A stretch of DNA of 52,782 bases, taken from IMG/VR virus record IMGVR_UViG_3300025154_000134, positions 1 to 52,782 of that record, one strand, 5' to 3'. Shown one piece after another: positions 7,976-51,626 of the stretch; positions within the stretch are counted from its first letter, which is position 1, and each line of letters opens with the position of its first letter. Made by a program: the position numbers and the translations under genes. The notes under the pieces were generated by a model. It worked only from the letters and a program-made list of their open reading frames with translations. It made no database searches and had not been told where the DNA came from. The DNA comes from a virus (lineage: Duplodnaviria > Caudoviricetes).

Positions 7976-8075
7976 ATGGGGAGACCTCGTGTTTAGAGGT
8001 GAGCACGTTTATCGCCGCCCGCCGTGGTGCCCGCTATTCGTGTTTTTGCTGCTGCGGCGTTGGTTTGAGATATGA
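7965..8075 (+). CDS. Small hypothetical protein
   Basis: GGAGG RBS; coupled ORF. Confidence 0.4.
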   Translation: MARKWGDLVFRGEHVYRRPPWCPLFVFLLLRRWFEI

Positions 8076-8134
8076 TGACTAGCCCCCCAGCCGCGCGTGT
8101 GGAAGTCGGGCGAAGTGATCGAGGTGGTGCTGCC

Positions 8135-12173: not shown

Positions 12174-13533
12174 TGACTTCGCCGCTTTCTGCCCGCAGCG
12201 TCTTGTCGTGCAAAACAAGGACGGCGCGCTTGCACCTTTACAACTGAATACCGTACAGCAGGCGCTTACCGGAGCACTCACCGGGCGCGACCTCGTGCTC
12301 AAGGCGCGGCACGTGGGTATCAGCACGGCGTTACAAGCCACGCTGTTTTGGCATACGCAGCGCGGCAACGTGCGGACGCTGACCCTCTGTCACGAGGACG
12401 ACTTGACGCAGGAAATCCGGGCGATGGTGGACAGGTTCTACAACAACCTGCCGGACCATTCGCCCGTGCGTAAGTTCGCCAACGCCACGTTGACCACCTA
12501 CCCGGAGCTAAATAGCCAAGCGCGTATCGCCACGGTGGGAGGCACGACGGGCAGCAAAAAGGGTCGCGGCGGCAGTGTGACGCATATCCACGGGTCTGAG
12601 GTCGCCTTCTGGCCGGATGCCGCCGGGGTCATGGCGGCGGCCATGCAGGCTGGACACCCGGCGATCTATTTGGAAAGCACGCCCAACGGCGCGCAGGGGT
12701 ATTTTTACACGCTGGTCATGGAAGCACTAGACGGCAACAGCGACTGGACGTTACACTTTTTCCCGTGGTGGATGGAGACAGATTACACGCTGCCCCTCAC
12801 CGACGGCGAGCCGCTTACACTGACGGACGAAGAGCAGGCGTTATGTGCGGCGCATGGCTTGACGCAGGAACAGATCAACTGGCGGCGGGCGAAACAGCGG
12901 GAACTCAAGCACCTGTTTATCCAGGAGTATCCCGAAGACCCGTTGTCGTGTTTCCTGCTGTCGGGGACGGGCTATTTTGGCGACCTGTCCAGCGTGTTTG
13001 TCGCGCCCACCGGGGCGGCTTATGACCCGGACCACCGGTATTATTGCGGGTTGGACTGGGGCCAGGCCAACGACTTCACCGCCGCGAGTGTGATCGACAA
13101 AACCGCGCTGGTGGAAGTAGAGGTGCTGCGGCTGAACAAATTACCGTGGTCGGAGATACGGCGTCAGGTGCGATTGTTGTGCGACCGCTGGCACTGCGAA
13201 ACCATCACGCCGGAAACGAATAGCATGGGGCCGAACATCGAAGAACTCTACCGGGAATTTGAAGTTGGGGAATGCGAGACGACCATCATCCCATTCACAA
13301 CGACCAACAATACGAAGTATGACGCGGCGGTGAATTTGTATGAGGCGCTGCACGAGGGTGGGTTGAAACTACTGCCGGACTCAGTGAGCAAGCGGGAACT
13401 CCTGGCCTTTCAGGCATCACAAACCTCGACGGGCCTCTGGCGCTTGGCGGCGGCAGAGGGGGAGCACGACGATACGGCGATCGCCAAACTGCTGGCGTGG
13501 GTAGGCACAACACGCGGAAGGGGATTTGTCTAA
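12115..13533 (+). CDS. terL: Terminase large subunit (start uncertain; ORF open from 12055)
   Basis: LKARHVGIST, HGSEVAFW, ESTPNG, nuclease motifs GLDWG and HDD. Confidence 0.92.
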   Translation: MVLGNLDAKTSRTLSRFPGDDFAAFCPQRLVVQNKDGALAPLQLNTVQQALTGALTGRDLVLKARHVGISTALQATLFWHTQRGNVRTLTLCHEDDLTQEIRAMVDRFYNNLPDHSPVRKFANATLTTYPELNSQARIATVGGTTGSKKGRGGSVTHIHGSEVAFWPDAAGVMAAAMQAGHPAIYLESTPNGAQGYFYTLVMEALDGNSDWTLHFFPWWMETDYTLPLTDGEPLTLTDEEQALCAAHGLTQEQINWRRAKQRELKHLFIQEYPEDPLSCFLLSGTGYFGDLSSVFVAPTGAAYDPDHRYYCGLDWGQANDFTAASVIDKTALVEVEVLRLNKLPWSEIRRQVRLLCDRWHCETITPETNSMGPNIEELYREFEVGECETTIIPFTTTNNTKYDAAVNLYEALHEGGLKLLPDSVSKRELLAFQASQTSTGLWRLAAAEGEHDDTAIAKLLAWVGTTRGRGFV

Positions 13534-13802
13534 TGCGCAAAGGGCTATTGGTGGGTTTGGGGTTGGCCTTGGTTATTGGCGTGTTGTGTTACCCGGTCTC
13601 GGCGGCCACTTACGATATCGCACCGGTTCAGGTGCAACTGCGCAGCGGGGCGGAGATTGCGGGCTATGACTGTTACCCGGCACGCACGGCGCCGCTGGAA
13701 GGCGATACTTTCGCCCTCGTTACGCTCAACACGTCCAAAGGTGCGGCGTTCTACGAATGCACCTTAACAACACTTACCCTACTGGATATGCCTCATGACT
13801 GA
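13533..13802 (+). CDS. Hypothetical exported protein
   Basis: Signal-peptide-like N-terminus. Confidence 0.6.
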   Translation: MRKGLLVGLGLALVIGVLCYPVSAATYDIAPVQVQLRSGAEIAGYDCYPARTAPLEGDTFALVTLNTSKGAAFYECTLTTLTLLDMPHD

Positions 13803-16203
13803 TGTAAGCCTGCGGTCACGGCTGCACGCGGCCAGGGTCGCCTGGACGGTAGGACGCCCACCGGTCCCCGCGCGGACGATGGAGACCTCGGCCCGGCGCG
13901 AGCCGATGATGATGTGGCCGTCGCGGGTCATGGACCAACCGCAGTGGAATATGGTGGACCTGCAATCGTATATCGATAGCGGCTTCAACCTCAACTCGGT
14001 GATTTACAGCGCGATCATGTACAAGGCGCGGGCGGTGGCCTCGGCTCCCCTGATGTCCTATCAGGGCGAAATGGACGAAGCCGAGGCGCTGGACCGCAGT
14101 CACCCGCTGGCGCAGGTGTTGGTGCGCCCCAACCCGTTCCAATCAGCCATCGAATTCCAGCAGATCAACACCGTGTATTTCAACCTGGCGGGGAATGCGT
14201 ACATCTACTTTGCACGTGAGCGGGCGGGGGACGTGCCATACGCCATGTACACCCTGCGGCCCGACCGGGTGAAGATCATCCCGACGAAAGACGCCCAGAA
14301 GCCGGTGCTGGGGTTTGTGTACGTGCCAGAGGGGTTGTCACTGCGTGACGGCTACCCCATGCTGCCCGAAGACGTGATGCACGTAAAACTGCCCAACCCC
14401 GGCGATCCGCTCAATGGGGCGGGGTATGGGCTGTCGCCCCTGGCCCCGCTGGCGCAGTCGGCCAATGTTGACAACGACATCACGCGCTTTTTGAAAGTGT
14501 TCTTCCAGAAGGGCGCGATGTTCCAACACGTGATCACGTTTGATCGCCCGATGGGGGACAAAGACATGGCGGCGGCGCGCGACCGGTTTGAGCAGATTTA
14601 TGGCGGCGTCGAAAACTGGGCCAAAGCGATGGTAATGGATAGCGGTGGTAAGGTGTCGCGGGTGTCACCCACCTTCGAGGAAATGGGCTTTGAAACGGTA
14701 GACGAACGCAACGAGGCGCGTATTTTAGGCCCGTTCGGTGTGCCGCCGATTCTTATTGGGACACGCCTGGGCCTGATGCGCAGCACGTACAGCAATTACG
14801 AAACGGCGCGCACGGCGTTTTGGGAAGACACGCTGCTGCCTGAATTACGGTTATTTGAGAATGAGTACCAACACTTTTTGGGCGATGATGATCTATTCGT
14901 GCGGTACGACGTGTCGTCCGTACCCGCGCTGCGGCGTGATATCGTAGCGCAGACGGGGGCGGCGCTGAACCTCATTCAAGGCGGCGTGCCGGTTCGGCAA
15001 GCTTTGGCGGCGGTCGGACTGGAAGTTGAAGACTTTGAGGGCGAAACGGCTGAAACAGATGCGCCAGCCTCAACGACCACAACCGACGAGATACCGGTCA
15101 ACGTCGAAACCACGCAGGGCCTCAACGGTATTCAGGTGCAATCGGCATTGCTGGTCTTGGAACAAATGCGGGCGGGCACGCTAACCAGCGCGGCGGCCAT
15201 TGAGTTCCTGGTCGCGTTGGGTATTGAACGCAGCAGCGCGGCGGTGATCACGTCGGGTGTGCCCGATACGCCCGCCGCTGAATCTGCGGAGATGGAGGCG
15301 GAGATAGAACCGCCAACACCTCCCACCCTGCCCGATGTTGACCAGAGTGGACAGAAGGCGCGCAAGGCGTATGATCCGTATGCCATGCAACGCAAAATGG
15401 ACACCCTCGCCGTGTCCAACGAAACACGGTTCGGCGATAGGGCCGCCAAAGTCTTCGACGCCGAAGCGCGGGAATTGGACGCCATGATCGACGAGGTTCA
15501 GCGCGAATCCCGGCGGCGTAAGGGCAGTTTCCAGTGGCGACTGCTGCAAGGTATGATCGAGGATTGGTACAAAACGAATCAGCCGGAAGTCTGGCGTGAG
15601 GCGTTTGTGCCCCTGATTGAAGGCGTCATGATCGACGCGGGGCAGGAATGGGCTGCCGCGTTGGGTGTGCAGTGGAACGTGCGGAATATCCAGGGCGAAG
15701 CGTGGTTTCAAAACTACACGCTGAAATTTGCGCAGCCGATCACCGACACCAGCAGCGCGGTCGTCAAGGACGTGATCGCCCAAGCCATGTCGGAAGGATG
15801 GTCGATCCCGCAGATGCAAGAACGGCTGGGGCTGGTCTTCCAACAGTGGGCCGAGGGCAACCTGTCACCGGATGATTTCGAGTGGATGCAGGCGCGGTTG
15901 CCGAATTACCGCCGTGAAGCCATCGCGCGGACAGAAACGATCCGCGCCTCGAATGCTGGTACTCACGAACTGGGCAAACAGTGGGGGGTCAAATTCAAGG
16001 GCTGGCTGTCGTCCGGCAACGATGGCCGGACACGCGACTCCCACATTGAAGCGGGTGACACGTATGGGCCGGGCGGTGAGCATATCCCGCTGGACGACTC
16101 GTTTATGGTGGGTGGCGTGGCGATGTTGTATCCCGGCGACCCCAGTGCTCCGCCTGATGAAACCGTTAACTGTCGCTGCACTCAGTTACTCTACACTGAG
16201 TAG
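13795..16203 (+). CDS. HK97-family portal protein fused to a MuF/SPP1 gp7-like minor head domain
   Basis: Portal motifs RPNPFQS, GNAYIYF, GYGLSP, FGVPPILIG; C-terminal IARTE, DGRTRDSH, YPGDP...VNCRC. Confidence 0.9.
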   Translation: MTDVSLRSRLHAARVAWTVGRPPVPARTMETSARREPMMMWPSRVMDQPQWNMVDLQSYIDSGFNLNSVIYSAIMYKARAVASAPLMSYQGEMDEAEALDRSHPLAQVLVRPNPFQSAIEFQQINTVYFNLAGNAYIYFARERAGDVPYAMYTLRPDRVKIIPTKDAQKPVLGFVYVPEGLSLRDGYPMLPEDVMHVKLPNPGDPLNGAGYGLSPLAPLAQSANVDNDITRFLKVFFQKGAMFQHVITFDRPMGDKDMAAARDRFEQIYGGVENWAKAMVMDSGGKVSRVSPTFEEMGFETVDERNEARILGPFGVPPILIGTRLGLMRSTYSNYETARTAFWEDTLLPELRLFENEYQHFLGDDDLFVRYDVSSVPALRRDIVAQTGAALNLIQGGVPVRQALAAVGLEVEDFEGETAETDAPASTTTTDEIPVNVETTQGLNGIQVQSALLVLEQMRAGTLTSAAAIEFLVALGIERSSAAVITSGVPDTPAAESAEMEAEIEPPTPPTLPDVDQSGQKARKAYDPYAMQRKMDTLAVSNETRFGDRAAKVFDAEARELDAMIDEVQRESRRRKGSFQWRLLQGMIEDWYKTNQPEVWREAFVPLIEGVMIDAGQEWAAALGVQWNVRNIQGEAWFQNYTLKFAQPITDTSSAVVKDVIAQAMSEGWSIPQMQERLGLVFQQWAEGNLSPDDFEWMQARLPNYRREAIARTETIRASNAGTHELGKQWGVKFKGWLSSGNDGRTRDSHIEAGDTYGPGGEHIPLDDSFMVGGVAMLYPGDPSAPPDETVNCRCTQLLYTE

Positions 16204-16214
16204 TGGAGGTCATT

Positions 16215-17549
16215 ATGTACGAGGTCTACCGGTTGGGGAACGGACGGCGTGATTTAGTCGATAAGGCGCGCGATTACGAGACGGCCCGCCAGCGCGCGAT
16301 TGAGGCCAGCGCCTTTCAGCGCGCGTTGTTCATTGTGGTCCGCGAGGGCTTTGGCGACCCGCTGTATTATGCGTATGACGGTGTGGGCGGGGATCAGGCG
16401 ACCGTGTTGCCACGCGTTCACATTGCCCCGGCGGAGTCCGTCGCGGGGCAGGATGACCCGCCGCGTGGTCGCCGCAAGGGACCGAGCGAGACGAAAGCGC
16501 GGATTACGCCCCAGCGGGAATACAAGATCGGTCCTGCTTACGTGGTAGAGTGCAAGGCCGTTGATGACGGCAAGCTGGGCATCGTTGAGGCAGTCGTGAG
16601 TGTGTATGGCGTGTTAGATGACGGCAGAGATATCATCTCCAATTCGTTTTTTGCTAAGTCGTTGTCTGAACACGGACACCGCGTGCGCGTACTCAATAGT
16701 CACAGCCTCAAAGACGGTGTGCTTGAGGTGATAGGGAAGCCACTCTTGATGCGAGAGGTTGGGCGGGAAGAATTGCCATCTGAAGTACTGAACCGGTATC
16801 CAGAAGCTACCGGCGGCTTTTTGACTACAACTCAATTCATGTTGAGTGATGCGCGTAGCAAGGCGGTTTATGATCGACTAGACGCAGGCTGGATTAACGA
16901 ATGGTCTATAGGCTTTGATGATTTGCAGTCTGAGAAGTCCCGGCTGGTTCGGCGCACTTATAACGGAACACAATGGCGTTATGACCGAGCGTCAATGGAA
17001 GACCCGCCCGAATCCCTGGTTACTGACGACTCCGGTAGACCTATTGTGGCGCGACTACTACGCCAAGGACGACTCTGGGAATACTCTCCCACAGTCTGGG
17101 GAATGAATCCGGCCACAAGTACAGTAAGCGTTAAGGATATAGGCGGAGAAAGCACCGAAACCGACGCTCTATCAGATGACGACATAGCGCAGGACGCAGA
17201 TACAACCGCTCTTGACGTAGAGCAGGACCCCGATCCCATCGATACCAAAGTGGGGCGCGTCCTGAGCAGCGTTAATTTTACTCGTATTCAACAAGCGTAT
17301 ACCCTGCTGAACGAGGTCATGCAGTCGGCAGGGTTGCTTGACGAAGAGGCGGCAGACGATACAGCCGCCCGGCATGGCGAATTGCAACACACCAGCGGCG
17401 ACGGGCCGCACGAAGGTCTGACACCCATCTCGGACGAGTCGGCCACTCCGACCGAGACCGGGCCGCAGGCGAACGAAGCACCCGACACCAAGCGAGCCGA
17501 TTTGCTGCGAACAATTGAGCAGCGACTAGCTGAAGTGGAGGAACAATGA
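16215..17549 (+). CDS. Prohead protease (HK97 type) with acidic scaffold-like tail
   Basis: VLNSH, IGKP, WSIGF, LWEYSPTVWGMNP. Confidence 0.85.
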   Translation: MYEVYRLGNGRRDLVDKARDYETARQRAIEASAFQRALFIVVREGFGDPLYYAYDGVGGDQATVLPRVHIAPAESVAGQDDPPRGRRKGPSETKARITPQREYKIGPAYVVECKAVDDGKLGIVEAVVSVYGVLDDGRDIISNSFFAKSLSEHGHRVRVLNSHSLKDGVLEVIGKPLLMREVGREELPSEVLNRYPEATGGFLTTTQFMLSDARSKAVYDRLDAGWINEWSIGFDDLQSEKSRLVRRTYNGTQWRYDRASMEDPPESLVTDDSGRPIVARLLRQGRLWEYSPTVWGMNPATSTVSVKDIGGESTETDALSDDDIAQDADTTALDVEQDPDPIDTKVGRVLSSVNFTRIQQAYTLLNEVMQSAGLLDEEAADDTAARHGELQHTSGDGPHEGLTPISDESATPTETGPQANEAPDTKRADLLRTIEQRLAEVEEQ

Positions 17550-18853
17550 CCACGAAGGAAAAAGTCGAGCGCTATAAGGCACTCTACGCCCAGGCCAGAA
17601 CTCTGGTCGAGGGCGGGGATGTCGAAAACGCCGAAAAAATGTTGAAAGAAGCCGATGACCTTAAGGCGTCTGCCGCGCGTGAGCTTGACATCCTCAAACG
17701 CGCTACGGACGGCGAAACGGATGTCACCGGTCTGGAACAGAAGAGCGCCCCGCGCCCGCAGGCAGAGCCGGAGCGAAAGACGAAGTTTGACAACTACGAC
17801 GAATGGGCCAACAGCATGGCGCGTTTCCTGACCAAACAGCAGCCCGATCACCGTCTGAAACTGTGGAATGACGTGGGTGATAATCCGATCCCGCTCTTCA
17901 ACGAACAGAAACAGATGGTTGAAAACGTGGGCGCGTCCGGTGGCTTCCTGGTGCCGGTGGAACAGAGTAACGAGATCATGGCGATTGTCGCCGAACTCGC
18001 CATCGTGCGCCCGCGCGCGACCGTCATTCGCATGGTGCGCCGTCAGTATTCCCGCCCCGTGTTGGACCAGACCGGTACCACGGCTGGTCGCCCGCACTGG
18101 TTCGGCGGCATGGTGTTCTACTGGGGCGAAGAAGCCGCTGAGAAGACCATCACAACCGCCAGTTGGCGCGAAGTGAATCTGGTTGCCAAGAAACTCTATG
18201 GCTATACGCGCGCCAGTGATGAACTGGTAGACGATGCGATCATCAGCCTGAGCGATTACCTGCAAGGCCCCACGGGCATGGCGGGCGGTATCGCCTGGAA
18301 TGAAGACTATGCGTTCCTGCAAGGCAATGGCGCGGGGCAGCCGCTTGGCGTGATCAACGCTGGGGCAACCATCACCATCAATCGCCAACAGGCGGGGCCG
18401 GGTGTTGATCCCGTCACCTATCACGACCTGACCGAAATGCTGGAACACCATCTCGAAACGGAAAACAGCATGTGGGTCGCGTCACTGTCACTGCGCGGAT
18501 CGCTGATGCGCATGACCTATCCGTCCAGCAACCCATCGCTGGTGTGGCAACCGAGCGCGCGTGAAGGCAATCCCGATACGCTGCTAGGCCGCCCGATTGT
18601 GTGGACCGAAAAGGTTCCGCTGAGTGGGTCTGCGGGCGATATCGGCCTGTACGACTTCCGACACTATTGGGTTGGCGACCGGCAGGCGCTCACGTTTGCC
18701 AGCACCAACGCCGAATATTTCAAATACGACCAGACGTCGTACCGCATGGTGCATCGCGTGGACGGTCGCCCATGGATGAATACCTATTTTACTCTCCAGG
18801 ACGGAACGTCTACAATTTCGCCCTTCGTTATATTAGGGGCTAAGAGTACGTAA
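17546..18853 (+). CDS. Major capsid protein (HK97 fold)
   Basis: GGFLVP, ASDELVDD, FLQGNGAGQPLGV, TLLGRPI, RVDG motifs. Confidence 0.93.
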   Translation: MTTKEKVERYKALYAQARTLVEGGDVENAEKMLKEADDLKASAARELDILKRATDGETDVTGLEQKSAPRPQAEPERKTKFDNYDEWANSMARFLTKQQPDHRLKLWNDVGDNPIPLFNEQKQMVENVGASGGFLVPVEQSNEIMAIVAELAIVRPRATVIRMVRRQYSRPVLDQTGTTAGRPHWFGGMVFYWGEEAAEKTITTASWREVNLVAKKLYGYTRASDELVDDAIISLSDYLQGPTGMAGGIAWNEDYAFLQGNGAGQPLGVINAGATITINRQQAGPGVDPVTYHDLTEMLEHHLETENSMWVASLSLRGSLMRMTYPSSNPSLVWQPSAREGNPDTLLGRPIVWTEKVPLSGSAGDIGLYDFRHYWVGDRQALTFASTNAEYFKYDQTSYRMVHRVDGRPWMNTYFTLQDGTSTISPFVILGAKST

Positions 18854-22649: not shown

Positions 22650-23515
22650 TCAGTGTTGCCGTTGTGTGTCGTGCCAAGGGATTTGATGAAACACGGCTAA
22701 AGCTGGGATGGTGGTCTCACGGCGTTCCCGATCTAGATTGGGCCTTTTATCCTGCCATAGACGGGCAAGTGATCAATAAAGACCGATTGGCAGCGCAGGG
22801 CCACGACCTGATCGTATGGGAAGATTGGGTCTGGAATACGTGGGAAGGCACGTCGTCTATCCCGATTTACGCGGTCATGGTAGACAGCAACACCAGCCCG
22901 CGCCGCCGTCGCAATTATATAGCACGCGCTAAACAAGCTGATGTAATCCTGGTCGATCAGGACCATTTAAAAACATTTCGCGGTATGGGGAAGCCTGTTT
23001 ACCGTTGGTCGTATGGCGTTAATCCAGCAGTGTTTCGTGCGCAAGACAAGACAGTTGATGTGGCCTATCACGTGCAACACACAGACGACCGTAGTAAATT
23101 GCACGACTATTTGCGGGGATGGACACAGAATAACTCGCAGTGGCGCGTCACGATGGGCGGCAATATGACCATCGCACAATATGCGGTGCGAATTGGGCAG
23201 GCGCGGATCGTCGTACACAAACGGACACATGAACAGTGTCGCTCGCACCGTTTTTTTGACGCGCTGGCAGCGGGGTGCTGTCTACTTACCGACCGGGGAT
23301 GGTCGGTTAATGAAGATGGGTTCAGGCCGGGACATCACTTTCTGGAATGGAATGACTATCGGGATTTGACGGAGATGATTGAACGCCTGTTAGAAACAAA
23401 CGAATGGACCAAATACGCCAACGTGGGCCAGGCTTTTGTACTGTCGCGCCACACGTGGGCACACCGGGCAGCAGAGTTCATCCGCATTGTGGAGGATACA
23501 CGTGCTTCTATTTAA
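22646..23515 (+). CDS. Glycosyltransferase (YkvP/CgeB-like)
   Basis: RFFDALAAGCCLLTD and VLSRHTWAHRA. Confidence 0.8.
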   Translation: MISVAVVCRAKGFDETRLKLGWWSHGVPDLDWAFYPAIDGQVINKDRLAAQGHDLIVWEDWVWNTWEGTSSIPIYAVMVDSNTSPRRRRNYIARAKQADVILVDQDHLKTFRGMGKPVYRWSYGVNPAVFRAQDKTVDVAYHVQHTDDRSKLHDYLRGWTQNNSQWRVTMGGNMTIAQYAVRIGQARIVVHKRTHEQCRSHRFFDALAAGCCLLTDRGWSVNEDGFRPGHHFLEWNDYRDLTEMIERLLETNEWTKYANVGQAFVLSRHTWAHRAAEFIRIVEDTRASI

Positions 23516-24164
23516 CGAAACGGGCATTCATGACGACTTGTGGGCGGCGCTCGAAGAACACGAACCGTTTATTCGCACGATCATAGCCGACGTGTATACG
23601 CGCCTGGATGAACACTACCCGAAACGTGAGACCCGCGATTATGAGGCGGCGCTGTTGTACATCATGGCCCGCCAGTACAATGCTCCCGGCGCGCGGATCG
23701 TGGAGATTGGCACGTGCTGGGGCTGGACGGCAGCGGTTATGCAGACCGCCGCACCGTTGGCCCATATCATCACCTGCACGCCTAGCCCGAACCACATCGT
23801 CATCGCGCGGCGCAACCTGGAGCCGAACTTCCCGCGCGTGGAAGTCTTTGGCGGGCGCTCGGTGGACCTGCTGCCGCAGCTCGCGCCAGACAGTGTTGAC
23901 ATGGTATTCGTGGACGGTGATCACCAGCACGTGGCCGATGACCTGCCGTTTTACAATGTGCTCAAACCGGGAGGCTTGATGATCCACCATGACTACTGCC
24001 CTGATAAACCGTTGTGCACCGGGCCGCGCCCCTGCCGGTGGGTGTATGACACGGTGAATTCGTTTAGCGCACGGTTGGCCCATGAGCCTGACGTATTGAT
24101 GGTGGACCACAACAAAGAGGGCATAGCAGGGCACTACCGGCGTGAGGGGGAGGTGTGGCTATGA
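23502..24164 (+). CDS. Class I SAM-dependent methyltransferase (Methyltransf_24-like)
   Basis: VEIGTCWG, DMVFVDGDH, LKPGGLMIHHDY. Confidence 0.85.
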   Translation: MLLFNETGIHDDLWAALEEHEPFIRTIIADVYTRLDEHYPKRETRDYEAALLYIMARQYNAPGARIVEIGTCWGWTAAVMQTAAPLAHIITCTPSPNHIVIARRNLEPNFPRVEVFGGRSVDLLPQLAPDSVDMVFVDGDHQHVADDLPFYNVLKPGGLMIHHDYCPDKPLCTGPRPCRWVYDTVNSFSARLAHEPDVLMVDHNKEGIAGHYRREGEVWL

Positions 24165-26916: not shown

Positions 26917-27146
26917 TGAGCCAGTTCCGGGACTGGCAGTTTACCAAGGGCGCAGTTGACCCGCCAGAGGAATATGCCGAATATTTGCTCTGCAAAGCTG
27001 TGTACCACTGCACCCCTGACGAACTGTCCGAGCAGGATGAATGGACGACCAACCTTCATTTTGCGTTTTATGTCGAGGAACTGAAAGCGCAAGACAAGCA
27101 GCGCGGAACAACGAGGCGCATAGGCAGGACAAAACGTGAGCAGTAA
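26916..27146 (+). CDS. Tail assembly chaperone extension (gpT-like)
   Basis: -1 frame relative to gpG; YHCTPDEL motif. Confidence 0.7.
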   Translation: MSQFRDWQFTKGAVDPPEEYAEYLLCKAVYHCTPDELSEQDEWTTNLHFAFYVEELKAQDKQRGTTRRIGRTKREQ

Positions 27147-29571
27147 CACCATTGAAATCCTGATCAAAGCCACCGACAAGGCTACCGGTGTCATCGGTAA
27201 AGCCACCGGGGATTTGCGCAACCAGTTTGACAGCTTGGGCAAGGCCGCGCTCAAAGTAGGAGCAGGCGCAGCCCTGGGTGGTATTACGGCGCTTGGTGCG
27301 GGCCTGGGCCTGGCGCTCAGCGAAGCGATGGAAGCCGAAGTCAACATCGCCAAACTGGAAGCCGTGCTCAAGGCGACGGGCGGGGCGGCGGGGCTGACGA
27401 AGGATGAAGTATTGGGCATGGCCGACAGCCTGAGCACCGTCACGCGGTTCAGCGACGATGCGATCCTGGCCGGGCAAACCATGCTGCTCACGTTTACAAA
27501 TATCGGCGAGGATACCTTTCCGCGCGCGACGGAAACAATGCTCGACATGGCCGAGATGTTCGGCGGGGTAGACGCGGCCAGCGTCATGTTGGGCAAGGCG
27601 CTCAACGACCCGATTCAGGGCGTGACCGCACTCCGGCGCGTGGGCGTGCAGTTGACGGATGCCCAGGAAGACATGATCAAAGCGATGGTGGAGTCCGGTG
27701 ACGTGGCGGGCGCTCAGACCGTCATCCTGGACGAACTCAACCGCGAGTTTGGAGGCATCGCCAAAGCTGCCGGGCAGACGCTTAGCGGGAAATTAACCAT
27801 CCTCAAAAACAAGTTTCTGAACGTGGCGGAGGCGGCTGGAATGCGCCTGCTGCCGGTATTGTCCAGCCTGATTGACCGTTATCTCACGCCGTTGGTGCCC
27901 AAAATCGAACGAGTGGTCGCCGTCTTTGGCAACTTTATCGAAATGATGTCGATGGGATCGCGGTATTGGGCCGAGGCGGGTGAGGCACTTGGTTTTTTGA
28001 TGGGTAATACAGACGGCGCGAACAAAGTAGCGTTTAAGATGGTGCAAACATTCTGGGACGTGGTTGACGTGGTAAAGAACCTCGCAGGAACTATCGGGGG
28101 ATTTATCAGCGAACACAGCCAAGCCTTTATCGCCGCGCTCGCGGCCATTGGCGCGGTCATTGCGGGAGCCGCCATCGCCGCCGGGATAACCGCCATTGCC
28201 GCTGCCGTCATGGGTCTGCTGAGTCCGCTAACGCTGGTTATCGGGGCCATCGCCCTACTGGCGGCAGCGTGGGCGGAGGACTGGGGCGGCATTCGCACGT
28301 TCGTTACCGATAGCGTATGGCCGCTACTCAAGCCCATTTTTGAGGACCTCAAACTATGGCTGGAAGACACGATTCCGAAGGCCATTGACGCGCTAGAGAC
28401 TGCGTTTACTGACCTCAAAACCGCGTTTGATACCGGAGGTTTGGGGGCGGTGGGTGAGTTGATCCTTGAAAGCCTCGAAACTGGATTGGGGGAATTAAGT
28501 ACGTGGGCGTTAGACAACATTGTAACACCGATTGTGGCAACGCTGGTGCTTACCGATTGGGGTGAGGTCGGCAACACATTACAAACGTTGCTCGAAAAGT
28601 TTCTGGGTATCGCCGGATCGGGACTGACAGACCTGGGCACGTGGATACTAGACAAGATCGTCGCCCCGGTCGTCCTGGCGCTGGCGGCTGTGGATTGGTC
28701 TGCGGTCGGTAGCACACTATTGACGCTGCTCGAAAAGTTTTTGTCTTTTGCCGGTCGCGGGTTGGCTTCTATGGGCGAGTTCATCTACCAAAAAATCATC
28801 GCGCCCACGATTGAATACCTCGCCGGGGTCAATTGGTCCTCGGTCGGCAGTACGTTATTGACACTACTCGAAAAGTTCCTATCGTTTGCTGGACGGGGAT
28901 TAGCAAGTATAGGCGAATTCATCTACCAGAAGATTATCCAGCCCACGATTGAATATCTGGCAACAGTTGACTGGGGCAATGTGGGGAGCACGTTGCTCAT
29001 ACTGCTCGAAAAGTTATTGGGTGTCGTCGGATCGGGTATCGAAGATATTGGCGCGTGGGCGTATGAAACGGTTATCGCTCCAATTGTCGCCAAGCTCACG
29101 TCGGGGGATACCTATACAGCATTATGGGAGTCGGCAAAACAGGCGGGGTCGGCCATCTTCGATGCCATTATTGCCGCATTGGGTGATCTGCCGAACGAGT
29201 TGATCAAAATTATCAATGATGCGATTCCTAATCATGTTGACTTCGGGTCGATCCATGTCCCCGACTTAGGCCCATTGGGCGGCGGGTATGACGTGCCTCT
29301 TTATCTGGAAATTCCCGACAGCCCAATTCCTCATCTCGGCACGGGAGCTATTGTCACCAGTCCCACCCTGGCGCTGTTGGGCGAAATAGAACCAGAAGCA
29401 GTGATTCCGCTATCGCGCCTGAACGGTGGAGGGGCAAGTGGTGGCAGAACACTAACGATCAATACCGTGAATGTCTATGGCGTGCAAAACGCTACACAAC
29501 TGCTCGACCAGCTAGAGCAGGAAGCACGACGGCGCAATCGACGGCTCACCACTAGTATGGCGGGGGGATAA
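27136..29571 (+). CDS. Tape measure protein
   Basis: Ala/Gly-rich helical; LGKALNDPIQG; C-terminal PTLALLGE..PEAVIPL. Confidence 0.92.
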   Translation: MSSNTIEILIKATDKATGVIGKATGDLRNQFDSLGKAALKVGAGAALGGITALGAGLGLALSEAMEAEVNIAKLEAVLKATGGAAGLTKDEVLGMADSLSTVTRFSDDAILAGQTMLLTFTNIGEDTFPRATETMLDMAEMFGGVDAASVMLGKALNDPIQGVTALRRVGVQLTDAQEDMIKAMVESGDVAGAQTVILDELNREFGGIAKAAGQTLSGKLTILKNKFLNVAEAAGMRLLPVLSSLIDRYLTPLVPKIERVVAVFGNFIEMMSMGSRYWAEAGEALGFLMGNTDGANKVAFKMVQTFWDVVDVVKNLAGTIGGFISEHSQAFIAALAAIGAVIAGAAIAAGITAIAAAVMGLLSPLTLVIGAIALLAAAWAEDWGGIRTFVTDSVWPLLKPIFEDLKLWLEDTIPKAIDALETAFTDLKTAFDTGGLGAVGELILESLETGLGELSTWALDNIVTPIVATLVLTDWGEVGNTLQTLLEKFLGIAGSGLTDLGTWILDKIVAPVVLALAAVDWSAVGSTLLTLLEKFLSFAGRGLASMGEFIYQKIIAPTIEYLAGVNWSSVGSTLLTLLEKFLSFAGRGLASIGEFIYQKIIQPTIEYLATVDWGNVGSTLLILLEKLLGVVGSGIEDIGAWAYETVIAPIVAKLTSGDTYTALWESAKQAGSAIFDAIIAALGDLPNELIKIINDAIPNHVDFGSIHVPDLGPLGGGYDVPLYLEIPDSPIPHLGTGAIVTSPTLALLGEIEPEAVIPLSRLNGGGASGGRTLTINTVNVYGVQNATQLLDQLEQEARRRNRRLTTSMAGG
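28504..29095 (+). repeat. 138-bp (46-aa) tandem repeat, four copies plus a partial, inside the tape measure gene
   Basis: CTCGAAAAGT recurs at 28591, 28729, 28867 and 29005. Confidence 0.85.
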
Positions 29572-38981: not shown

Positions 38982-39761
38982 TCATTTCCCTACATTTTCT
39001 GTCATCCATTGGAAAAACTTTTCAACCTGAAGAATTATGGTGTTCGCGTTTCTTTTTCCGAACTTTTTAGTTATCCATACAACAGGATCACAGGCTTGTT
39101 TTGATTGATTACATGAACTGCAAAGCGGTATCATATTATCTTTAGTGGTGCCAGGGCAACGCGGATCGGAAAGAGCGATCCAGTGGTCCATATGCGGCTC
39201 AATATTTCCAAACAAATCTCGCAAGGGATTTCCACATGCAGCGCAGCAACCATGCCAATATTCCAAAGCGCGACCCTCGTCTTCTGAAGTAAAATTGCAT
39301 GGTAAAGCGGCGTGACGCGCATCTCGCCGTCTCTCTTGTGCTCTTCTCTTAAGAGGATTAGCTTTGGCCCACAAGCGATGTTGTTCTTTGGATTTTTCGC
39401 TATTCACCCTTTTATATTCTTTGGTGCGTGCAAGTATTCTAGTTTTGTTTTTTTCGTAGTGGCGTCTATTATTTTCTTTTTTCCGTTCAGGGTTATTTTT
39501 ATCCCATGAACGAGAAGTAGCACGACGAGTTTCTAGATAATCATTATTTAGAGAATGTTCTGAATGATATTGTTTTTTATATTCCCGGATTTTCGCGCGG
39601 TTTTCAGCATAATACTGTCTGTCATTTTTTTTGGAGCACTCACGGCACTCTGATCTAAGTCTACCTCGGTCAAGACGAAAATAATTAAGAGTGGACGGCT
39701 TTTCCTCGCCACATTGTGAACAACGCTTGTGTCCATTCAAATTTGAAGTATTATTAGACAT
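38982..39761 (-). CDS. HNH homing endonuclease, paralog of 34638-35399
   Basis: Shared RALEYWHG.CA.C..PLRDLFG.IEPH.DHWIALSDPR...PLCSSCN.SK. Confidence 0.88.
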   Translation of the reverse strand: MSNNTSNLNGHKRCSQCGEEKPSTLNYFRLDRGRLRSECRECSKKNDRQYYAENRAKIREYKKQYHSEHSLNNDYLETRRATSRSWDKNNPERKKENNRRHYEKNKTRILARTKEYKRVNSEKSKEQHRLWAKANPLKRRAQERRRDARHAALPCNFTSEDEGRALEYWHGCCAACGNPLRDLFGNIEPHMDHWIALSDPRCPGTTKDNMIPLCSSCNQSKQACDPVVWITKKFGKRNANTIILQVEKFFQWMTENVGK

Positions 39762-46935: not shown

Positions 46936-47358
46936 CTAATTGTTAGGGTATCGACTTCGCAGCAGTTGCATTCCCTGAGATCTGCCATAATTTTTGCTGT
47001 TCGCTATGTACTTGTCATTCCGTAGAGGTGCACCGTGGTTGTGCAGTTTCACAATCCAGAATCGTTCTCGCTGGTGGGCCTGTTGGTATGGCACTGTCTC
47101 AATAACAACTAACACTGGCCGCAGCCTCGCTTCTAATAATTCGCGTATCCACAGCGCCAGCTTTGGGCTTGCAACATACGGTTTTTTAACGCACATGTGG
47201 CTTATCATCCGCCCCTTGGGATTAATAGTAACCCCCACATAACAAATTCTGCTGTCGCGCGGATCGACCAATGCATAGATAGTATGAGGTTTTGTCAGCA
47301 GGTTGTGCCGTCGGGTGTCAATTCCTTGTTGTATTGACGCGCTTGATCTTGTAGTCAT
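46936..47358 (-). CDS. GIY-YIG endonuclease
   Basis: TIYALVDPRD...YVGVT..PKGR...H; ERFWI...LRN. Confidence 0.85.
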   Translation of the reverse strand: MTTRSSASIQQGIDTRRHNLLTKPHTIYALVDPRDSRICYVGVTINPKGRMISHMCVKKPYVASPKLALWIRELLEARLRPVLVVIETVPYQQAHQRERFWIVKLHNHGAPLRNDKYIANSKNYGRSQGMQLLRSRYPNN

Positions 47359-47384: not shown

Positions 47385-47413
47385 ATTTTATCACCAAACA
47401 AGCAAGATGGCAA
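47385..47413 (-). promoter_or_regulatory. Sigma70 promoter for the GIY-YIG gene
   Basis: TTGCCA-17 bp-TAAAAT on the minus strand. Confidence 0.65.
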
Positions 47414-47430
47414 ACAGACACGACGGCGTA

Positions 47431-47459
47431 TTGACAATCAGAACGGGATAGTTTAAAAT
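47431..47459 (+). promoter_or_regulatory. Rightward sigma70 promoter
   Basis: TTGACA-17 bp-TAAAAT. Confidence 0.8.
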
Positions 47460-47486
47460 TGTTTACAGGTAGAAAGGAGACGCCAC

Positions 47487-47741
47487 ATGGGCGATGAATT
47501 GAGTTTTCGCGTTAGTTTCAGGCTCAATGGAAAGGCTGCACGAGCGTTCCTTGAGGAACAAAGCCGTATCTTGCGCCTGACAGGTTCAGCAGTACAGTCA
47601 GCCAAATCAACCCTCGGTGAAGCGGCTGCAATTGAATTTCTCAACAGGCGCGGTTATGACGTGCCGAAGTCCAGTACGAACTGGGGCGGTCGCCGCGAGG
47701 AACCCGAAACCGTCACCGTTCAGCAGGAGGTGCAGGCATGA
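47487..47741 (+). CDS. Small putative DNA-binding regulator
   Basis: AAGGAG RBS; first gene after the rightward promoter; beta strand followed by two helices. Confidence 0.55.
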   Translation: MGDELSFRVSFRLNGKAARAFLEEQSRILRLTGSAVQSAKSTLGEAAAIEFLNRRGYDVPKSSTNWGGRREEPETVTVQQEVQA

Positions 47742-47881
47742 AGCACATCGTTCCGCTCGTGATCGTGGTCGTCATGGCACTCGCCCCCGTGCGCGCGCCC
47801 AAGTCGCTGCCACCCGGCCCGCCCGACAGTGGCTGCGGCGGCATGGTTGACACGCCCGCGTGCGGGTACGCGGGGCCGTAA
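47738..47881 (+). CDS. 47-aa putative exported peptide
   Basis: GGAGG RBS, ATGA overlap, MKHIVPLVIVVVMALA signal-like N-terminus. Confidence 0.5.
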   Translation: MKHIVPLVIVVVMALAPVRAPKSLPPGPPDSGCGGMVDTPACGYAGP

Positions 47882-47889
47882 ATTGACAT

Positions 47890-48032
47890 GCCCCCTGGCC
47901 CTGGCGGGTGTCCGCGTCAGAACACTGTCGGGCGGTTCGTGGTCTGCGCCGATGAGCCTGGCGAGTACGGACCAAAATAACGGACGGCTCCACGATACGC
48001 CGTCCGAGCGGGTTCGATCCCCGCAGGGGGCA
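47890..48032 (+). ncRNA. Oversized tRNA-like RNA 1 (143 nt)
   Basis: Perfect acceptor stem GCCCCCT/AGGGGGC plus A; perfect T-arm GCGGG-TTCGATC-CCCGC; interior of about 110 nt with several hairpins. Confidence 0.6.
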
Positions 48033-48146
48033 GCATACCAGTAGGGGGTGCGGTGACGAAAAGAGGATTAAGCCCGCACACACGATAGGCCCTTCACTCC
48101 CAGGAGTGGTCCCGTCCTGGCACAAAATGAGAGAAACGGGACACAT

Positions 48147-48289
48147 GGATCGGCGGCGTGGTGGGAACACGCGCAGCAAGTTAACCGCTTGCGAATTCGG
48201 TAGCTCAGCGGATAGAGCAGGGAATCGCAGACCCGAATGGTAATCGGGCAGTCGTTTCCACGCGCGGGTTCGACTCCGGCCCCGATCCA
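48147..48289 (+). ncRNA. Oversized tRNA-like RNA 2 (143 nt)
   Basis: Acceptor stem GGATCGG/CCGATCC plus A; D-arm GCGT..GG..ACGC; GGTTCGACTCC T-loop; second D-arm-like TAGCTCAGCGGATAGAGCA inside. Confidence 0.55.
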
Positions 48290-48435
48290 CAGTGCTATCG
48301 CCGGGGCGTGGTGGGACCGGCAGCCGACTAGGATCGCAACCTGGCCGAGGAATGTGGGAAGCTGCTCGCGATAGCACACCCCGCGCCGCAGGGGGCATCT
48401 GCGGCACACACTCAGGAGAGGGAGAGGGTACAGAA

Positions 48436-49146
48436 ATGGACCAACCAGGAGACGTTGTATATAGCGATTCGGCTGCTGTTCTGGCGCGCGCGCTGGTGGA
48501 CCTGCGTGATCGCGTCATTCAGAAGACGCGCATACAGTTCAACAACCGCGTGGCCGCGATGGACCAGGAGCGCGACTCAGACGTTCATCAGGCTTTGATC
48601 CTCAAGTGGCACGCGCACTTTGAAGACCTCGAAAAAGCCCTGGACGCGGACATCGCCACCATTGCCGAATCCCTACCCATCGTGCAGGAGATGACCGCTG
48701 TCAAGGGCATTGGTACCATGTTGGCGGTCAAGGTGGCGGCGCTCATTGATATTGAGCGGGCAGATACCGTCTCGGCACTGTGGAAGTACGCCGGATATGG
48801 TGTGACCGAAGGGGCACGGGACCGCCTCGAAAAGGGCGAGAAAGCGCCCTACAACATCCGCCTGAAAACGACCTGTTTTCTGGTGGGCGAAAGTTTCATC
48901 AAGTGCAATTCGCCCTATCGCCGCATATACGATGAGGCCAAAGCGTTTTATGAAACAGCTCATCCCGACTGGACTCCGGGTCACCGGCACAATGCCGCAC
49001 GCCGGAAGATGATCAAGTTGTGGCTGTCTCATCTATGGGTGATCTGGCGCACGTTGGAAGGGTTGCCAGTCAGTGATCCCTACATCATCGCGGGGGATAA
49101 CAACCATCACCGGTACATTGGCCCTGAGCAGTTCGGCTGGGGTTAA
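48436..49146 (+). CDS. tasA: TasA-like RNA-guided DNA-binding protein (IS110/Nop-related domain, no nuclease domain)
   Basis: Coiled coil, VKGIGTMLA, VSALWKYAGY, SPYRRIYDEAK, HNAARRKMIKLWLSHLW; 236 aa; no DEDD/RuvC N-terminus; array abuts the stop codon. Confidence 0.8.
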   Translation: MDQPGDVVYSDSAAVLARALVDLRDRVIQKTRIQFNNRVAAMDQERDSDVHQALILKWHAHFEDLEKALDADIATIAESLPIVQEMTAVKGIGTMLAVKVAALIDIERADTVSALWKYAGYGVTEGARDRLEKGEKAPYNIRLKTTCFLVGESFIKCNSPYRRIYDEAKAFYETAHPDWTPGHRHNAARRKMIKLWLSHLWVIWRTLEGLPVSDPYIIAGDNNHHRYIGPEQFGWG

Positions 49147-49399
49147 GCCATGCTATCGGAGTAACCCAGCACTAATAAGCGAGCCGTGGAAAAAAAGGAA
49201 CCCATTCTTCGGAAGCGAGCCATGTTGACAGAGTAACCCATATATAGGAAGCGAGCCAGTTTCCTTAAGTAACCCAACCCGAATAAGCGAGCCGCAGTCT
49301 ATAAGGAACCCATCATTCAGAAGCGAGCCGAAGATACCAGAGCAACCCATAGAATCCGAGCGAGCCAACGGATACAAGAAGCCCAGTGACAGTAGAGCG
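49146..49399 (+). ncRNA. TIGR-type tandem interspaced guide RNA array, 7 units
   Basis: Unit AGCCR-N9-AGNAACCCA-N9-AGCG; starts at 49146, 49182, 49218, 49254, 49290, 49326 and 49363. Confidence 0.88.
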
Positions 49400-49427
49400 C
49401 ATGACAGCACACCCCCAGGGGGACGCG

Positions 49428-50249
49428 ATGATCGACTACCTTGACACCGTGCAGCACATGGACGCGCTCGACCTCCTGCGTAGTCTGCCGGACGCGAGCG
49501 TGGATATGATTTTCACTGACCCGCCTTACGGCCACAACAACAACAACGGCGATCTTATTCAGCGCCGGGAACTGGCACTTGGAAAAGAAAAAGCAGTCCG
49601 TGAGTCTCGGCCAATACTGAACGATGGACCAGAAGCCAACGATCTGTTTTATCGGTTTTTGGGGGAAGCACAACGGGTGTTAAAACCGGGAGCCTGCTGC
49701 TGCTGCTGCTGCTGCGGCGGCGGCGGCCCCGATCCACAATTCGCACGGTGGACTCTGTGGATGGATGAAGTTATCGGATTTAAGCAGGCTGTAGTGTGGG
49801 ACAAAGGGCCAATGGGGATGGGGTGGCATTATCGCCGCAGTTATGAGTTTGTCCTGGTAGCGCAAAAACCCGGCGCGGCATGTAAATGGTATGACGTCAC
49901 CCGCGCGATTGAAAACATTATCCGACCCGGCAACGGGGCGTCGAAACAAATACCAGCCGAAAGCGATCATCCTACAAAGAAGCCGGTGGGGTTGGCAATG
50001 TGGTTTATCAGGTTGCACAGCCAACCCGGAGATATTGTATGCGATCCGTTTGCGGGCGGCGGTTCTACGCTAAAAGCGGCTCGATTGTTAGGGCGAAGGT
50101 TTATCGGGGCAGACTTGGACTTGTATTGGGTTGATTACACCCGCCGCGAATTACAGCAACCGTACACACCGCCGCTGTTCGACCTCGACGCGCCCGCGCC
50201 ACCCGCCGCCGCGCAGCTGCCGCTCATGGGCGAGGGGGACGCGCCATGA
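49428..50249 (+). CDS. DNA N6-adenine/N4-cytosine methyltransferase (beta class) with Cys7-Gly4 run
   Basis: IFTDPPYG, HPTKKP, VCDPFAGGGST. Confidence 0.9.
   Translation: MIDYLDTVQHMDALDLLRSLPDASVDMIFTDPPYGHNNNNGDLIQRRELALGKEKAVRESRPILNDGPEANDLFYRFLGEAQRVLKPGACCCCCCCGGGGPDPQFARWTLWMDEVIGFKQAVVWDKGPMGMGWHYRRSYEFVLVAQKPGAACKWYDVTRAIENIIRPGNGASKQIPAESDHPTKKPVGLAMWFIRLHSQPGDIVCDPFAGGGSTLKAARLLGRRFIGADLDLYWVDYTRRELQQPYTPPLFDLDAPAPPAAAQLPLMGEGDAP
49695..49727 (+). repeat. (TGC)7(GGC)4 trinucleotide repeat
   Basis: Read directly from the sequence. Confidence 0.95.
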
Positions 50250-50491
50250 GCCGATCACTGGTATGGGAAGTAGCGATCCTCAAAGCGGCCACGAAGGTGC
50301 TGACTCTCGACATTACGCGCAACGTTCTGTGGAATATGGCACGGTTCGATCACGGCTTGGTGAACCTGGCGCGGATGGCGGATGGTGACGTGCAGGACGC
50401 AGAGCGCGCCCTCAAGCACCTGGAAACCATGACGGCGGCGGAATACTACGGGCTGGAAGACGACACGCCCGGCGGCCCTGAGCGTCCATGA
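50246..50491 (+). CDS. Hypothetical protein
   Basis: ATGA overlap. Confidence 0.55.
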   Translation: MSRSLVWEVAILKAATKVLTLDITRNVLWNMARFDHGLVNLARMADGDVQDAERALKHLETMTAAEYYGLEDDTPGGPERP

Positions 50492-50706: not shown

Positions 50707-50937
50707 ATGACAACCCCGCCGCCAAGTGTATCCCACCAGCGAGAGTCATCCCTTCGCGCTATTCGAGCCGGACTAGACACGGCAGGCTTCCGGCATAGCC
50801 ACCTGACCGATAATCAACTAAACGAGGTGATCGGGACGATGTGTTTCAACATTTTGATGCAGGGTGCAGATGTCTATGACTGGCAGCAATGGGTAACGGA
50901 GATGCGCGCGCGGCTCGACAAGGACGGTGCGGCATGA
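50707..50937 (+). CDS. Hypothetical protein
   Basis: GAGGTG RBS. Confidence 0.6.
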   Translation: MTTPPPSVSHQRESSLRAIRAGLDTAGFRHSHLTDNQLNEVIGTMCFNILMQGADVYDWQQWVTEMRARLDKDGAA

Positions 50938-51626
50938 AAGCGCCAAGCGAACGACATCTTGAGGATTACATCTGGGAACACCCCGAAGCGTTGGGAACGA
51001 TTAACCTTCCGCCCGAATACGGTGAAGATTGTGCTATGTATTCTTTTGTGCTACGACAGTTCCACTTGCCGTCTGGCATTGTAGACCTTATCGGGTTTGA
51101 TTACCGCATGGTAATTTTTGAGCTTAAGAAAAACGTAGTCACTGCACAGGCATTAACTCAGCTCATGCGTTATATGCGCGATCTGCAACGCATTGTCGAT
51201 CGCCTACTTATGACCTTGATGGAGTCACAAGTAACTGAGCCGTGGGCACGCTTACATTTCGATGTGAATCGCATTGGACCCAACCCCCTCTTAGCGGGCA
51301 CGCTGATTGGACACGACATTGAAGACAACAATCTTTTGATCGCCTGCCAAGCCTGTAACGTCGACGTGTATTTATACGAATACGAGAATGGCGTGTATAC
51401 CTTTGAAGACATCAGTCTTAACACTATTATGGGAATGGATGTATATGACAGTGTTTGCCGACTTGCGGCAGGCGAGATTGGCAAGGCGTTCTTTGATCAC
51501 TTCCGACAAGATATCGAAGATCATCCAGCACGAGACGTACAAGTGCAGCGAGCCATGTTCTCTGTACTTAAAGCGGCAGAAGCTCATCTTAAAGAGCGTG
51601 ACGAGATCACAGGCGGTGCAGTATGA
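50934..51626 (+). CDS. PD-(D/E)XK nuclease, NucS C-terminal-like
   Basis: ERHLEDYI, RQF.LPSGIVDLIG, IFELKK, QLMRYM. Confidence 0.7.
   Translation: MKAPSERHLEDYIWEHPEALGTINLPPEYGEDCAMYSFVLRQFHLPSGIVDLIGFDYRMVIFELKKNVVTAQALTQLMRYMRDLQRIVDRLLMTLMESQVTEPWARLHFDVNRIGPNPLLAGTLIGHDIEDNNLLIACQACNVDVYLYEYENGVYTFEDISLNTIMGMDVYDSVCRLAAGEIGKAFFDHFRQDIEDHPARDVQVQRAMFSVLKAAEAHLKERDEITGGAV

Follow-up and report, generated by a model that had tools for sequence, protein, structure and literature searches.

A tailed-phage sequence of 52,782 nt (IMG/VR record IMGVR_UViG_3300025154_000134; this whole stretch is called the window below) carries a gene, tasA, for a Nop-domain protein without a nuclease, directly adjoined by an array of short alternating repeats and spacers and then by a DNA methyltransferase gene (Table 1). 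This is the composition of TIGR-Tas systems, which were first described in 2025 in a report that calls TasA their commonest effector (Faure et al. 2025, Science, PMC12045711); a preprint of 2026 counts 6,685 arrays at 20,096 tas loci. These compact systems bind or cut DNA under RNA guidance and need no adjacent motif, hence their interest as tools. We propose that the locus is very probably a dual-repeat TIGR-TasA system of the phage, acting as an RNA-guided DNA binder without cleavage.

Table 1. Coordinates of the tasA locus and its flanks, numbered from the first letter of the window
Feature	Position	Strand	Details
Candidate promoter	47431-47459	+	TTGACA-17-TAAAAT, 11/12 consensus; ~1 kb upstream of tasA
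tasA, nuclease-less TIGR-associated Nop-domain protein, 236 aa	48436-49146	+	ATG 48436, TAA 49144-49146
Predicted tigRNA-processing dyad	Tyr216 codon 49081-49083; His224 codon 49105-49107	+	C-terminal loop of Nop domain
Dual-repeat TIGR array, seven units	49146-49399	+	regular-expression parse
Unit 1, 36 nt	49146-49181	+	AGCCA / TGCTATCGG / AGTAACCCA / GCACTAATA / AGCG
Unit 2, 36 nt	49182-49217	+	AGCCG / TGGAAAAAA / AGGAACCCA / TTCTTCGGA / AGCG
Unit 3, 36 nt	49218-49253	+	AGCCA / TGTTGACAG / AGTAACCCA / TATATAGGA / AGCG
Unit 4, 36 nt	49254-49289	+	AGCCA / GTTTCCTTA / AGTAACCCA / ACCCGAATA / AGCG
Unit 5, 36 nt	49290-49325	+	AGCCG / CAGTCTATA / AGGAACCCA / TCATTCAGA / AGCG
Unit 6, 37 nt, 10-nt spacer A	49326-49362	+	AGCCG / AAGATACCAG / AGCAACCCA / TAGAATCCG / AGCG
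Unit 7, 37 nt, variant loop, 10-nt spacer B	49363-49399	+	AGCCA / ACGGATACA / AGAAGCCCA / GTGACAGTAG / AGCG
N6/N4 DNA methyltransferase gene	49401-50249	+	Pfam E 2.8e-28; ATG 2 nt past last AGCG

The TasA protein

The product of tasA scores 197.5 bits against NCBIfam model NF052498 (TIGR_Tas_endo, a curated equivalog named 'TIGR-Tas system RNA-guided endonuclease'), whose cut-off is 100. Among solved structures, phmmer aligns its residues 29-231 with residues 125-319 of the TasR chain 9mty_A (E 1.1e-27) and also finds TasH (E 1.7e-17); Faure et al. 2025 (PMC12045711) solved 9MTY as a complex of TasR with tigRNA and DNA. The RuvC nuclease of TasR lies before chain residue 125. Just 28 residues precede the shared region in TasA, which thus has no room for a nuclease, and since the alignment takes up solely past the RuvC domain, the protein is of the nuclease-less TasA type. 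A Pfam scan detected no nuclease domain in it either, the sole match being a sub-threshold one to Transposase_20 (E 0.19, 12.6 bits against 21.3).

An AlphaFold2 model built with 34 homologues (pLDDT 92.7, pTM 0.87) is all-helical: two long helices, residues 10-43 and 52-77, form a coiled-coil hairpin and are followed by the Nop domain. The motif GIG occupies residues 91-93 and LWKYAG residues 115-120, and confidence dips in the C-terminal loop 211-230, to 72-77 per ten-residue block. The top PDB folds returned by Foldseek are TasH and TasR, with TM scores of 0.73-0.78 (TasH 21kl_A, TMq 0.78; 9w04_B, E 5e-11; TasR 9mty_B, root mean square deviation 1.9 over 202 columns). The IS621 recombinase comes next (E 2e-4, TMq 0.58), and the match to Nop5 (1nt2_B) is weak (E 1.2, TMq 0.37). 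An initial annotation, made from the letters alone, had read this open reading frame (ORF) as a TasA with a coiled coil, a GIG...LW.YAG core and no DEDD/RuvC or HNH domain, and had proposed just such a structure comparison; family model, alignment and fold agree with it on each point. TasA is a Tas-family Nop-domain protein without a nuclease domain.

Architecture of the array

The A at 49146 is both the last base of the tasA stop codon and the first base of the AGCC that opens the array. Every unit follows the scheme AGCC-R / spacer A / AG-N-A-R-CCCA loop / spacer B / AGCG, and the units measure 36, 36, 36, 36, 36, 37 and 37 nt. All 14 spacers are different. Read across unit borders, the edge repeat is AGCGAGCC plus a purine (8-9 nt), with full copies at 49178, 49214, 49250, 49286, 49322 and 49359, and the 9-nt loop repeat is AGNAACCCA, for which unit 7 has the variant AGAAGCCCA. 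At its ends the array carries half repeats: it opens with the 3' half of the edge repeat (AGCC, 49146-49149) and closes with the 5' half (AGCG, 49396-49399). Edge and loop repeats both start with AG and both end with CC-R, in keeping with the box D (start) and box C (end) that both repeats of a dual-repeat array carry.

The published definition of a dual-repeat array names two alternating repeats of 8-12 nt, spacers of about 9 nt and a 36-nt unit, usually present in 5-15 copies (PMC12045711). The array has this layout, with two 9-nt spacers per 36-nt unit and edge repeats truncated at both ends as that source describes. The initial annotation had already given the shared stop-codon base, the seven units with their spacer pairs, the two 37-nt units with one 10-nt spacer each and the assignment to TIGR-Tas; our regular-expression parse reproduces the units and spacers exactly. 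Folded as RNA, the array is no more stable than its shuffled versions (z-score 0.02, 200 shuffles), as expected of an array of the dual-repeat and not the stem-loop type.

Chance, assembly and a possible transposon origin

Chance does not account for the repeats. The window has 8 copies of the edge-repeat core AGCGAGCC, whereas 100 shuffles average 1.9 +/- 1.3 copies and never reach 8. The array holds six of the eight, at spacings of 36/36/36/36/37, and is the sole place in the 52.8-kb window where a 6-mer returns four times or more at intervals of 34-39 nt. Three further public runs provided DNA contigs that match the array positions with 0 differences; one contig covers 49151-49405, and two cover the 5' part (49030-49258 and 48937-49215). 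With an identical array in independent contigs, the array is not an assembly artefact. Of 12 public runs (8 studies) listed as carrying the sequence, none was an RNA run.

A CRISPR-Cas system was considered and rejected. The repeats are 8-9 nt long and not about 25-36 nt, each unit has two 9-nt spacers, and PADLOC gave nothing at E < 0.005 for TasA and two neighbouring proteins. Tandem Repeats Finder, run on the window with a minimum score of 30, likewise yielded nothing from the array region, which fits the remark in the initial annotation that repeat finders would miss the array.

The kinship with IS110 enzymes raises the alternative that the locus is what is left of an IS110-type mobile element, decayed or inactive. 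PHROGs places TasA in phrog_4285 (E 8.6e-40), a family labelled transposase, several mycobacteriophage homologues carry the same annotation, and the weak Transposase_20 match points in this direction as well. A relic of this kind is nevertheless highly implausible: the protein has no DEDD/RuvC-like domain, and the IS110 equivalog NF033542 gives it 28.4 bits against a cut-off of 140 (E 9e-7) and covers model positions 147-259 only. There is no sign of decay, as the ORF is unbroken and has the conserved residue in each of the 36 columns found invariant in a 34-sequence alignment, five of the seven units are perfect, and the array region is unchanged in the contigs of the three other runs. The suggestion of the initial annotation, that the phage encodes a programmable DNA binder rather than a transposase, is the probable one, judged by homology.

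Related loci and their spacers

A protein search returned 171 proteins at E <= 0.001; among the best 120 of the 171, nearly all have 222-306 aa. Phage records contain 87 matches, including the phage of SpTasH and 82 mycobacteriophages, with Microcystis phage Mvi-JY20 (39% identity) on top. For comparison of whole loci we used 71 related ones: 66 from viral contigs, where a search with the single protein found 0 relatives and a search with an alignment all 66; four from genomes, the nearest being Ornatilinea apprima with 49% identity; and that of the Microcystis phage. In 59/71 of these loci four or more units follow one another with a period of 34-39 nt, against 0/71 when shuffled and 2/71 at a control lag of 44-49 nt. 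The array lies downstream of tas in 32 of the 59, upstream in 18 and on both sides in nine, and its repeat motif is on the tas strand in 58.

The repeats are constant and the spacers variable. From 81 exact 36-nt units of 13 close loci we obtained the consensus AGCGAGCCA-n9-AGnAACCCA-n8-A, in which eight positions per spacer carry ~0 bits and the ninth is purine-biased. First bases of edge and loop repeat agree in 30 of 33 distinct array consensuses (A/A 22, T/T 6, G/G 2), which would fit a single symmetric dimer reading both repeats, the explanation given for edge/loop covariation in PMC12045711. One of the two loci with GG-type repeats has CGG ending both repeats; the other has the same GG.

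A close comparison is offered by two phages, L025 and L026, whose tas genes are 96% identical and whose flanks are 91-94% identical. Between their arrays 366/380 repeat positions match, against 72/304 variable positions (24%, the chance level). Between phages with 96% identical tas genes the spacers are thus replaced wholesale. The initial annotation had asked for a comparison of homologous loci, spacers that stay invariant being the outcome that would speak against it; in L025 and L026 they differ even though tas is nearly the same. A single one of the 14 window spacers, a low-complexity 9-mer, recurs in the 36-nt units of related arrays, at one locus.

Whole units are also found repeated. 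The same spacer pair stands at 1709 and 2224 in L004 and at 1675 and 2179 in L025, and within the L025 array (1675-2394) one spacer A has a different spacer B at 1747 than at 1963; such repetition hints that units are duplicated and recombined as arrays grow. L004 is a complete 41.9-kb phage with terminal repeats, in which two arrays (~1637-2475 and 3220-3760) with 26 exact 36-nt units flank tasA. Across 42 arrays of at least six units, repeat mismatches were compared for signs of polar decay: they average 1.87 for the first third of the array and 1.27 for the last, which is the worse one in 8 of 36 informative arrays. The higher value at the start is produced by the truncation of the first edge repeat, so these averages do not bear on decay along arrays.

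The overlap of array and tasA stop has parallels. In L006 (3150-3200), L014 (400-450) and L069 (3150-3195) the first unit lies inside the last tasA codons or the stop falls within the first edge repeat; the TGA stop of L069 lies inside GTGAGCC, comparable to the TAA of the window that shares its A with AGCC. Microcystis phage Mvi-JY20 (L002, PP438412.1), the nearest relative from a cultured phage, has an unannotated array of about ten units, at 3131-3470, after a tasA annotated as 'hypothetical protein'. Its repeats are TGCGAGCC (edge) and ACGAAACCC (loop), the array ends in a hairpin and a T-run, and a small opposite-strand ORF is annotated inside it.

In the window, too, an ORF of 85 aa on the minus strand (49153-49410) spans the whole array with a 12-residue rhythm, and a gene miscall is possible there. 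One could accordingly take the 36-nt periodicity for a coding repeat of 12 residues, as 36 is divisible by three and the minus strand has no stop in this frame anywhere in the array. We give this explanation practically no credence, and the comparative data already contradict it. The two 37-nt units mean that the repeat shifts frame within the ORF, the eight variable places show ~0 bits throughout and no codon pattern, the variable positions have diverged to chance level between phages with nearly identical tas genes, and the motif keeps to the tas strand, beside tas, in all but one of the loci with arrays. The minus-strand ORF is a by-product of the 36-nt period.

Proposed mode of action

If the TIGR-TasA system of the window works as its characterised relatives do, tasA and the array would be co-transcribed, and the precursor would be bound by a coiled-coil dimer of TasA, with one Nop domain on the edge repeat and the other on the loop repeat. 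The loop that bears Tyr216 and His224 would cleave between AGCG and AGCC, releasing tigRNAs of 36-37 nt. In each of these, the two spacers would pair with opposite DNA strands, spacer B next to the stretch taken by spacer A, and together they would make a target of ~16-18 bp with no adjacent motif needed. TasA would remain on the target uncut, bend the DNA and block transcription or replication.

Several of these steps have been described in relatives. FpTasA binds 36-nt RNAs, and the tandem-spacer rule and the structure come from TasR, as reported in PMC12045711. Binding of DNA by TasA, and repression of transcription by TasA and dead TasR, are described in 10.64898/2026.09.09.750476, and PlTasA is presented as a dimer on target DNA in 10.64898/2026.08.11.744272. 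The putative processing dyad is supported by an alignment (A2) that puts Y216 and H224 in the same columns as Y289 and H296 of SpTasH, residues named as catalytic for pre-tigRNA processing in PMC13421893. H224 is invariant in all 11 sequences of that alignment and at least 90% conserved in another (A1).

Other observations weigh against this reading or limit it. Both the production of tigRNAs and the dimer are argued for the window by analogy with characterised relatives. The TasA proteins whose binding or repression was tested (MbTasA, PlTasA) come, as far as the two reports describe them, from stem-loop systems, so the effector step is an extrapolation. In some relatives W stands where TasA has Y216, the two repeats open with AG and those of the solved TaTasR complex with UG, units 6 and 7 may be poor guides at 37 nt, and there is no terminator-like site between the array end at 49399 and the methyltransferase start at 49401. 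Finally, the seven guides have no obvious partner in the window: with either strand arrangement and 0-2 bp between the spacer sites allowed, and with mispaired spacers as controls, they gave 0 matches in the 52.8 kb at up to 3 mismatches, and 12 at 4 mismatches against ~6 per seven mispaired guides.

Search for targets

The last result bears also on the possibility that TasA is an RNA-guided repressor of the phage's own lifecycle, whose guides regulate the phage's own genes from sites in its genome. Regulation of the viral lifecycle is listed among possible roles in 10.64898/2026.09.09.750476, and the self-target search covered the window, ~66% of the phage genome (CheckV). This reading is nonetheless improbable, because to the 0 matches of the seven guides at up to 3 mismatches further null searches are added. 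Reduced to 8+8-nt cores with gaps of 0-4, the guides have 0 matches in the window at up to 1 mismatch. The 98 units of five related phage genomes, four of them 93-100% complete, have 0 matches to those genomes at 0-1 mismatch, and at 2-3 mismatches their counts equal those of mispaired controls; on genomes of 42-64 kb such controls give about 0.1-1 near-matches.

Wider searches gave the same picture. A set of 329 unique spacer pairs from 47 loci produced 1 match at 1 mismatch in 670 kb, against 0-4 in ten mispaired controls. The window guides, searched against the related loci with arrays unmasked (674 kb), produced 2 matches at up to 2 mismatches, which is the chance level; one of the two is unit 4 partly matching its own DNA, and guides directed at repeat junctions were not seen. 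In public collections of 596 billion bases a random 18-mer would be met about 17 times, too often for matches of that length to be interpreted. From the null self-searches we infer that the guides of this clade are not aimed at their own phage genomes, within the genome portions searched. With no target in the 52.8 kb, the host chromosome and rival mobile elements are the likeliest places for the natural targets; the natural targets of TIGR-Tas systems in general are called unresolved in 10.64898/2026.09.09.750476.

Flanking sequences and the methyltransferase gene

The candidate promoter upstream of tasA is the only sigma-70-like site on the + strand in 47400-50400. It is a consensus match and may not be of the host's type; the scan gave 4 sites in total against 1.2 expected in shuffles. 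Downstream, the sole + strand terminator-like site lies at 49982, inside the methyltransferase gene. A rho-independent terminator is typical, not obligatory, after published arrays, and a hairpin with a T-run follows the array in three relatives (L006, L069 and L002).

The ATG at 49401, 2 nt past the array with no terminator between, invites the idea that array and methyltransferase gene form one unit. TasA with its tigRNA would then recruit or gate RNA-guided DNA methylation, as a DNA-level analogue of the box C/D small nucleolar ribonucleoproteins, in which a Nop protein and a methyltransferase are joined (PMC12045711). In a weaker form, cleavage in the last edge repeat would set the 5' end of a nearly leaderless methyltransferase mRNA, whose expression TasA would control. 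We regard either form as very unlikely. A homologue of the abutting methyltransferase is found in just 1/71 related loci, and a DNA methyltransferase domain in 1/132 of their nearest-neighbour ORFs, the other neighbours being varied. TasA has no N-terminal domain of the kind by which Nop5 holds fibrillarin, and the account of gene neighbourhoods by Faure et al. (PMC12045711) ties just a ParB-like gene consistently to tasA. The phage encodes other DNA methyltransferases at 1716-2882 and 4933-5610, so the adjacency can be chance; a generic methyltransferase gene lies at 23436-24161 (all by PHROGs or Pfam).

Seven flanking proteins of the window were compared with the 71 related loci, and none recurs except the methyltransferase in that one locus. 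Such unconserved neighbours fit the published view of TasA as having no fixed partner apart from an occasional ParB-like gene, as it is put in PMC12045711. The missing terminator and the abutting methyltransferase gene are the sole unusual local features, and they are most likely incidental.

The methyltransferase product contains seven consecutive Cys and then four Gly (CCCCCCCGGGG); this stretch, at 49685-49738, was treated as a repeat and passed over in the alignment of contigs to the window.

Comparison with known systems

The nearest described type is the dual-repeat TIGR-TasA system of Flavonifractor plautii (FpTIGR-TasA), as presented in PMC12045711. Its Tas protein is, as in the window, a solo Nop-domain protein. 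In both, the array runs on the tas strand, edge repeats alternate with loop repeats, each 36-nt unit has two ~9-nt spacers, and a truncated edge repeat stands at either end; accessory genes are not conserved in the account given there. The window differs from this type in lacking a terminator after the array, in the methyltransferase gene 2 nt on, in the base shared with the tasA stop, and in repeats that both begin with AG rather than UG.

TaTasR (9MTY) and SpTasH of Salicola phage CGphi29 (9W03, 9W04, 21KL) have the same coiled coil and Nop fold (TMq 0.73-0.78), and SpTasH also has the Tyr/His processing dyad conserved in the window TasA. Unlike the latter, which should bind its target and leave it intact, they have a RuvC or HNH nuclease at the N-terminus, with which they cleave both target strands. 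MbTasA and PlTasA are likewise nuclease-free and are reported to bind matched DNA as dimers with reversible repression (10.64898/2026.09.09.750476, 10.64898/2026.08.11.744272). The array of PlTasA is stated to be stem-loop and MbTasA is treated among stem-loop systems, whereas the window locus is dual-repeat; stem-loop Tas proteins are described as devoid of the Tyr/His processing loop (10.64898/2026.09.09.750476), which the window TasA keeps.

More distant are the IS110/IS621 bridge-RNA recombinases (8WT6, 8WT9), which have a similar RNA-binding Nop-like domain; the window locus has neither their DEDD catalytic domain nor a single two-loop bridge RNA. The archaeal box C/D protein Nop5 (1NT2, 3PLA) differs by its fibrillarin-binding N-terminal domain, absent from the window TasA, and by acting on rRNA, where TasA would have DNA targets.

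Both the TIGR-TasA kind and the window protein are already known: the identical 236-aa sequence stands in at least two rows of supplementary file 3 of Faure et al. 2025, one of them with the gene coordinates of the window, and the same file also lists the relative from L069 and one from the source metagenome of L003. Since the family, the TasA subtype and the protein itself are published, the locus adds no new kind; the observation made in the initial annotation is confirmed as real and its reading supported. What is contributed is a tidy example from a groundwater/soil phage with all seven guides parsed, a confirmation of wholesale spacer replacement between phages with almost the same tas gene, and a controlled negative self-target result for this phage and five related phage genomes, which argues against simple self-regulation and for targets in the host or in rival elements.

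Other genes and elements of the window

The window is a tailed phage by its genes for terminase (12055-13530), portal (13795-16200), major head protein (17546-18850) and tape measure (27136-29568). The tasA locus is flanked by two stand-alone nuclease-type genes, GIY-YIG (46936-47358, -; E 2.6e-5) and NucS_C-like (50889-51626, +; E 1.7e-6), neither of which recurs among the 71 related loci. A third one, of the endonuclease VII/HNH type, lies at 38985-39761 (-; E 3.6e-25).

Two tRNA-like elements, 47889-48034 and 48193-48290 (both +), are situated in a non-coding stretch of ~550 bp upstream of tasA, each with an insertion at the anticodon loop. An Rfam scan of the whole window gave zero families at threshold; the Rfam tRNA model fits 48194-48288 with a 29-nt insert at 21.6 bits, the gathering score being 29. 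ARAGORN called no tRNA at either element under default settings, and with a relaxed threshold and introns allowed it called Leu(cag) with a 57-nt insert and Cys(gca) with a 23-nt insert. The elements could be intron-bearing or decayed tRNA genes.

An RNA ligase gene (8072-9031, +; phrog_14301, E 2e-76) lies near a metallophosphoesterase gene (9972-11195, +; E 7e-7), and the two may constitute an RNA or tRNA repair pair.

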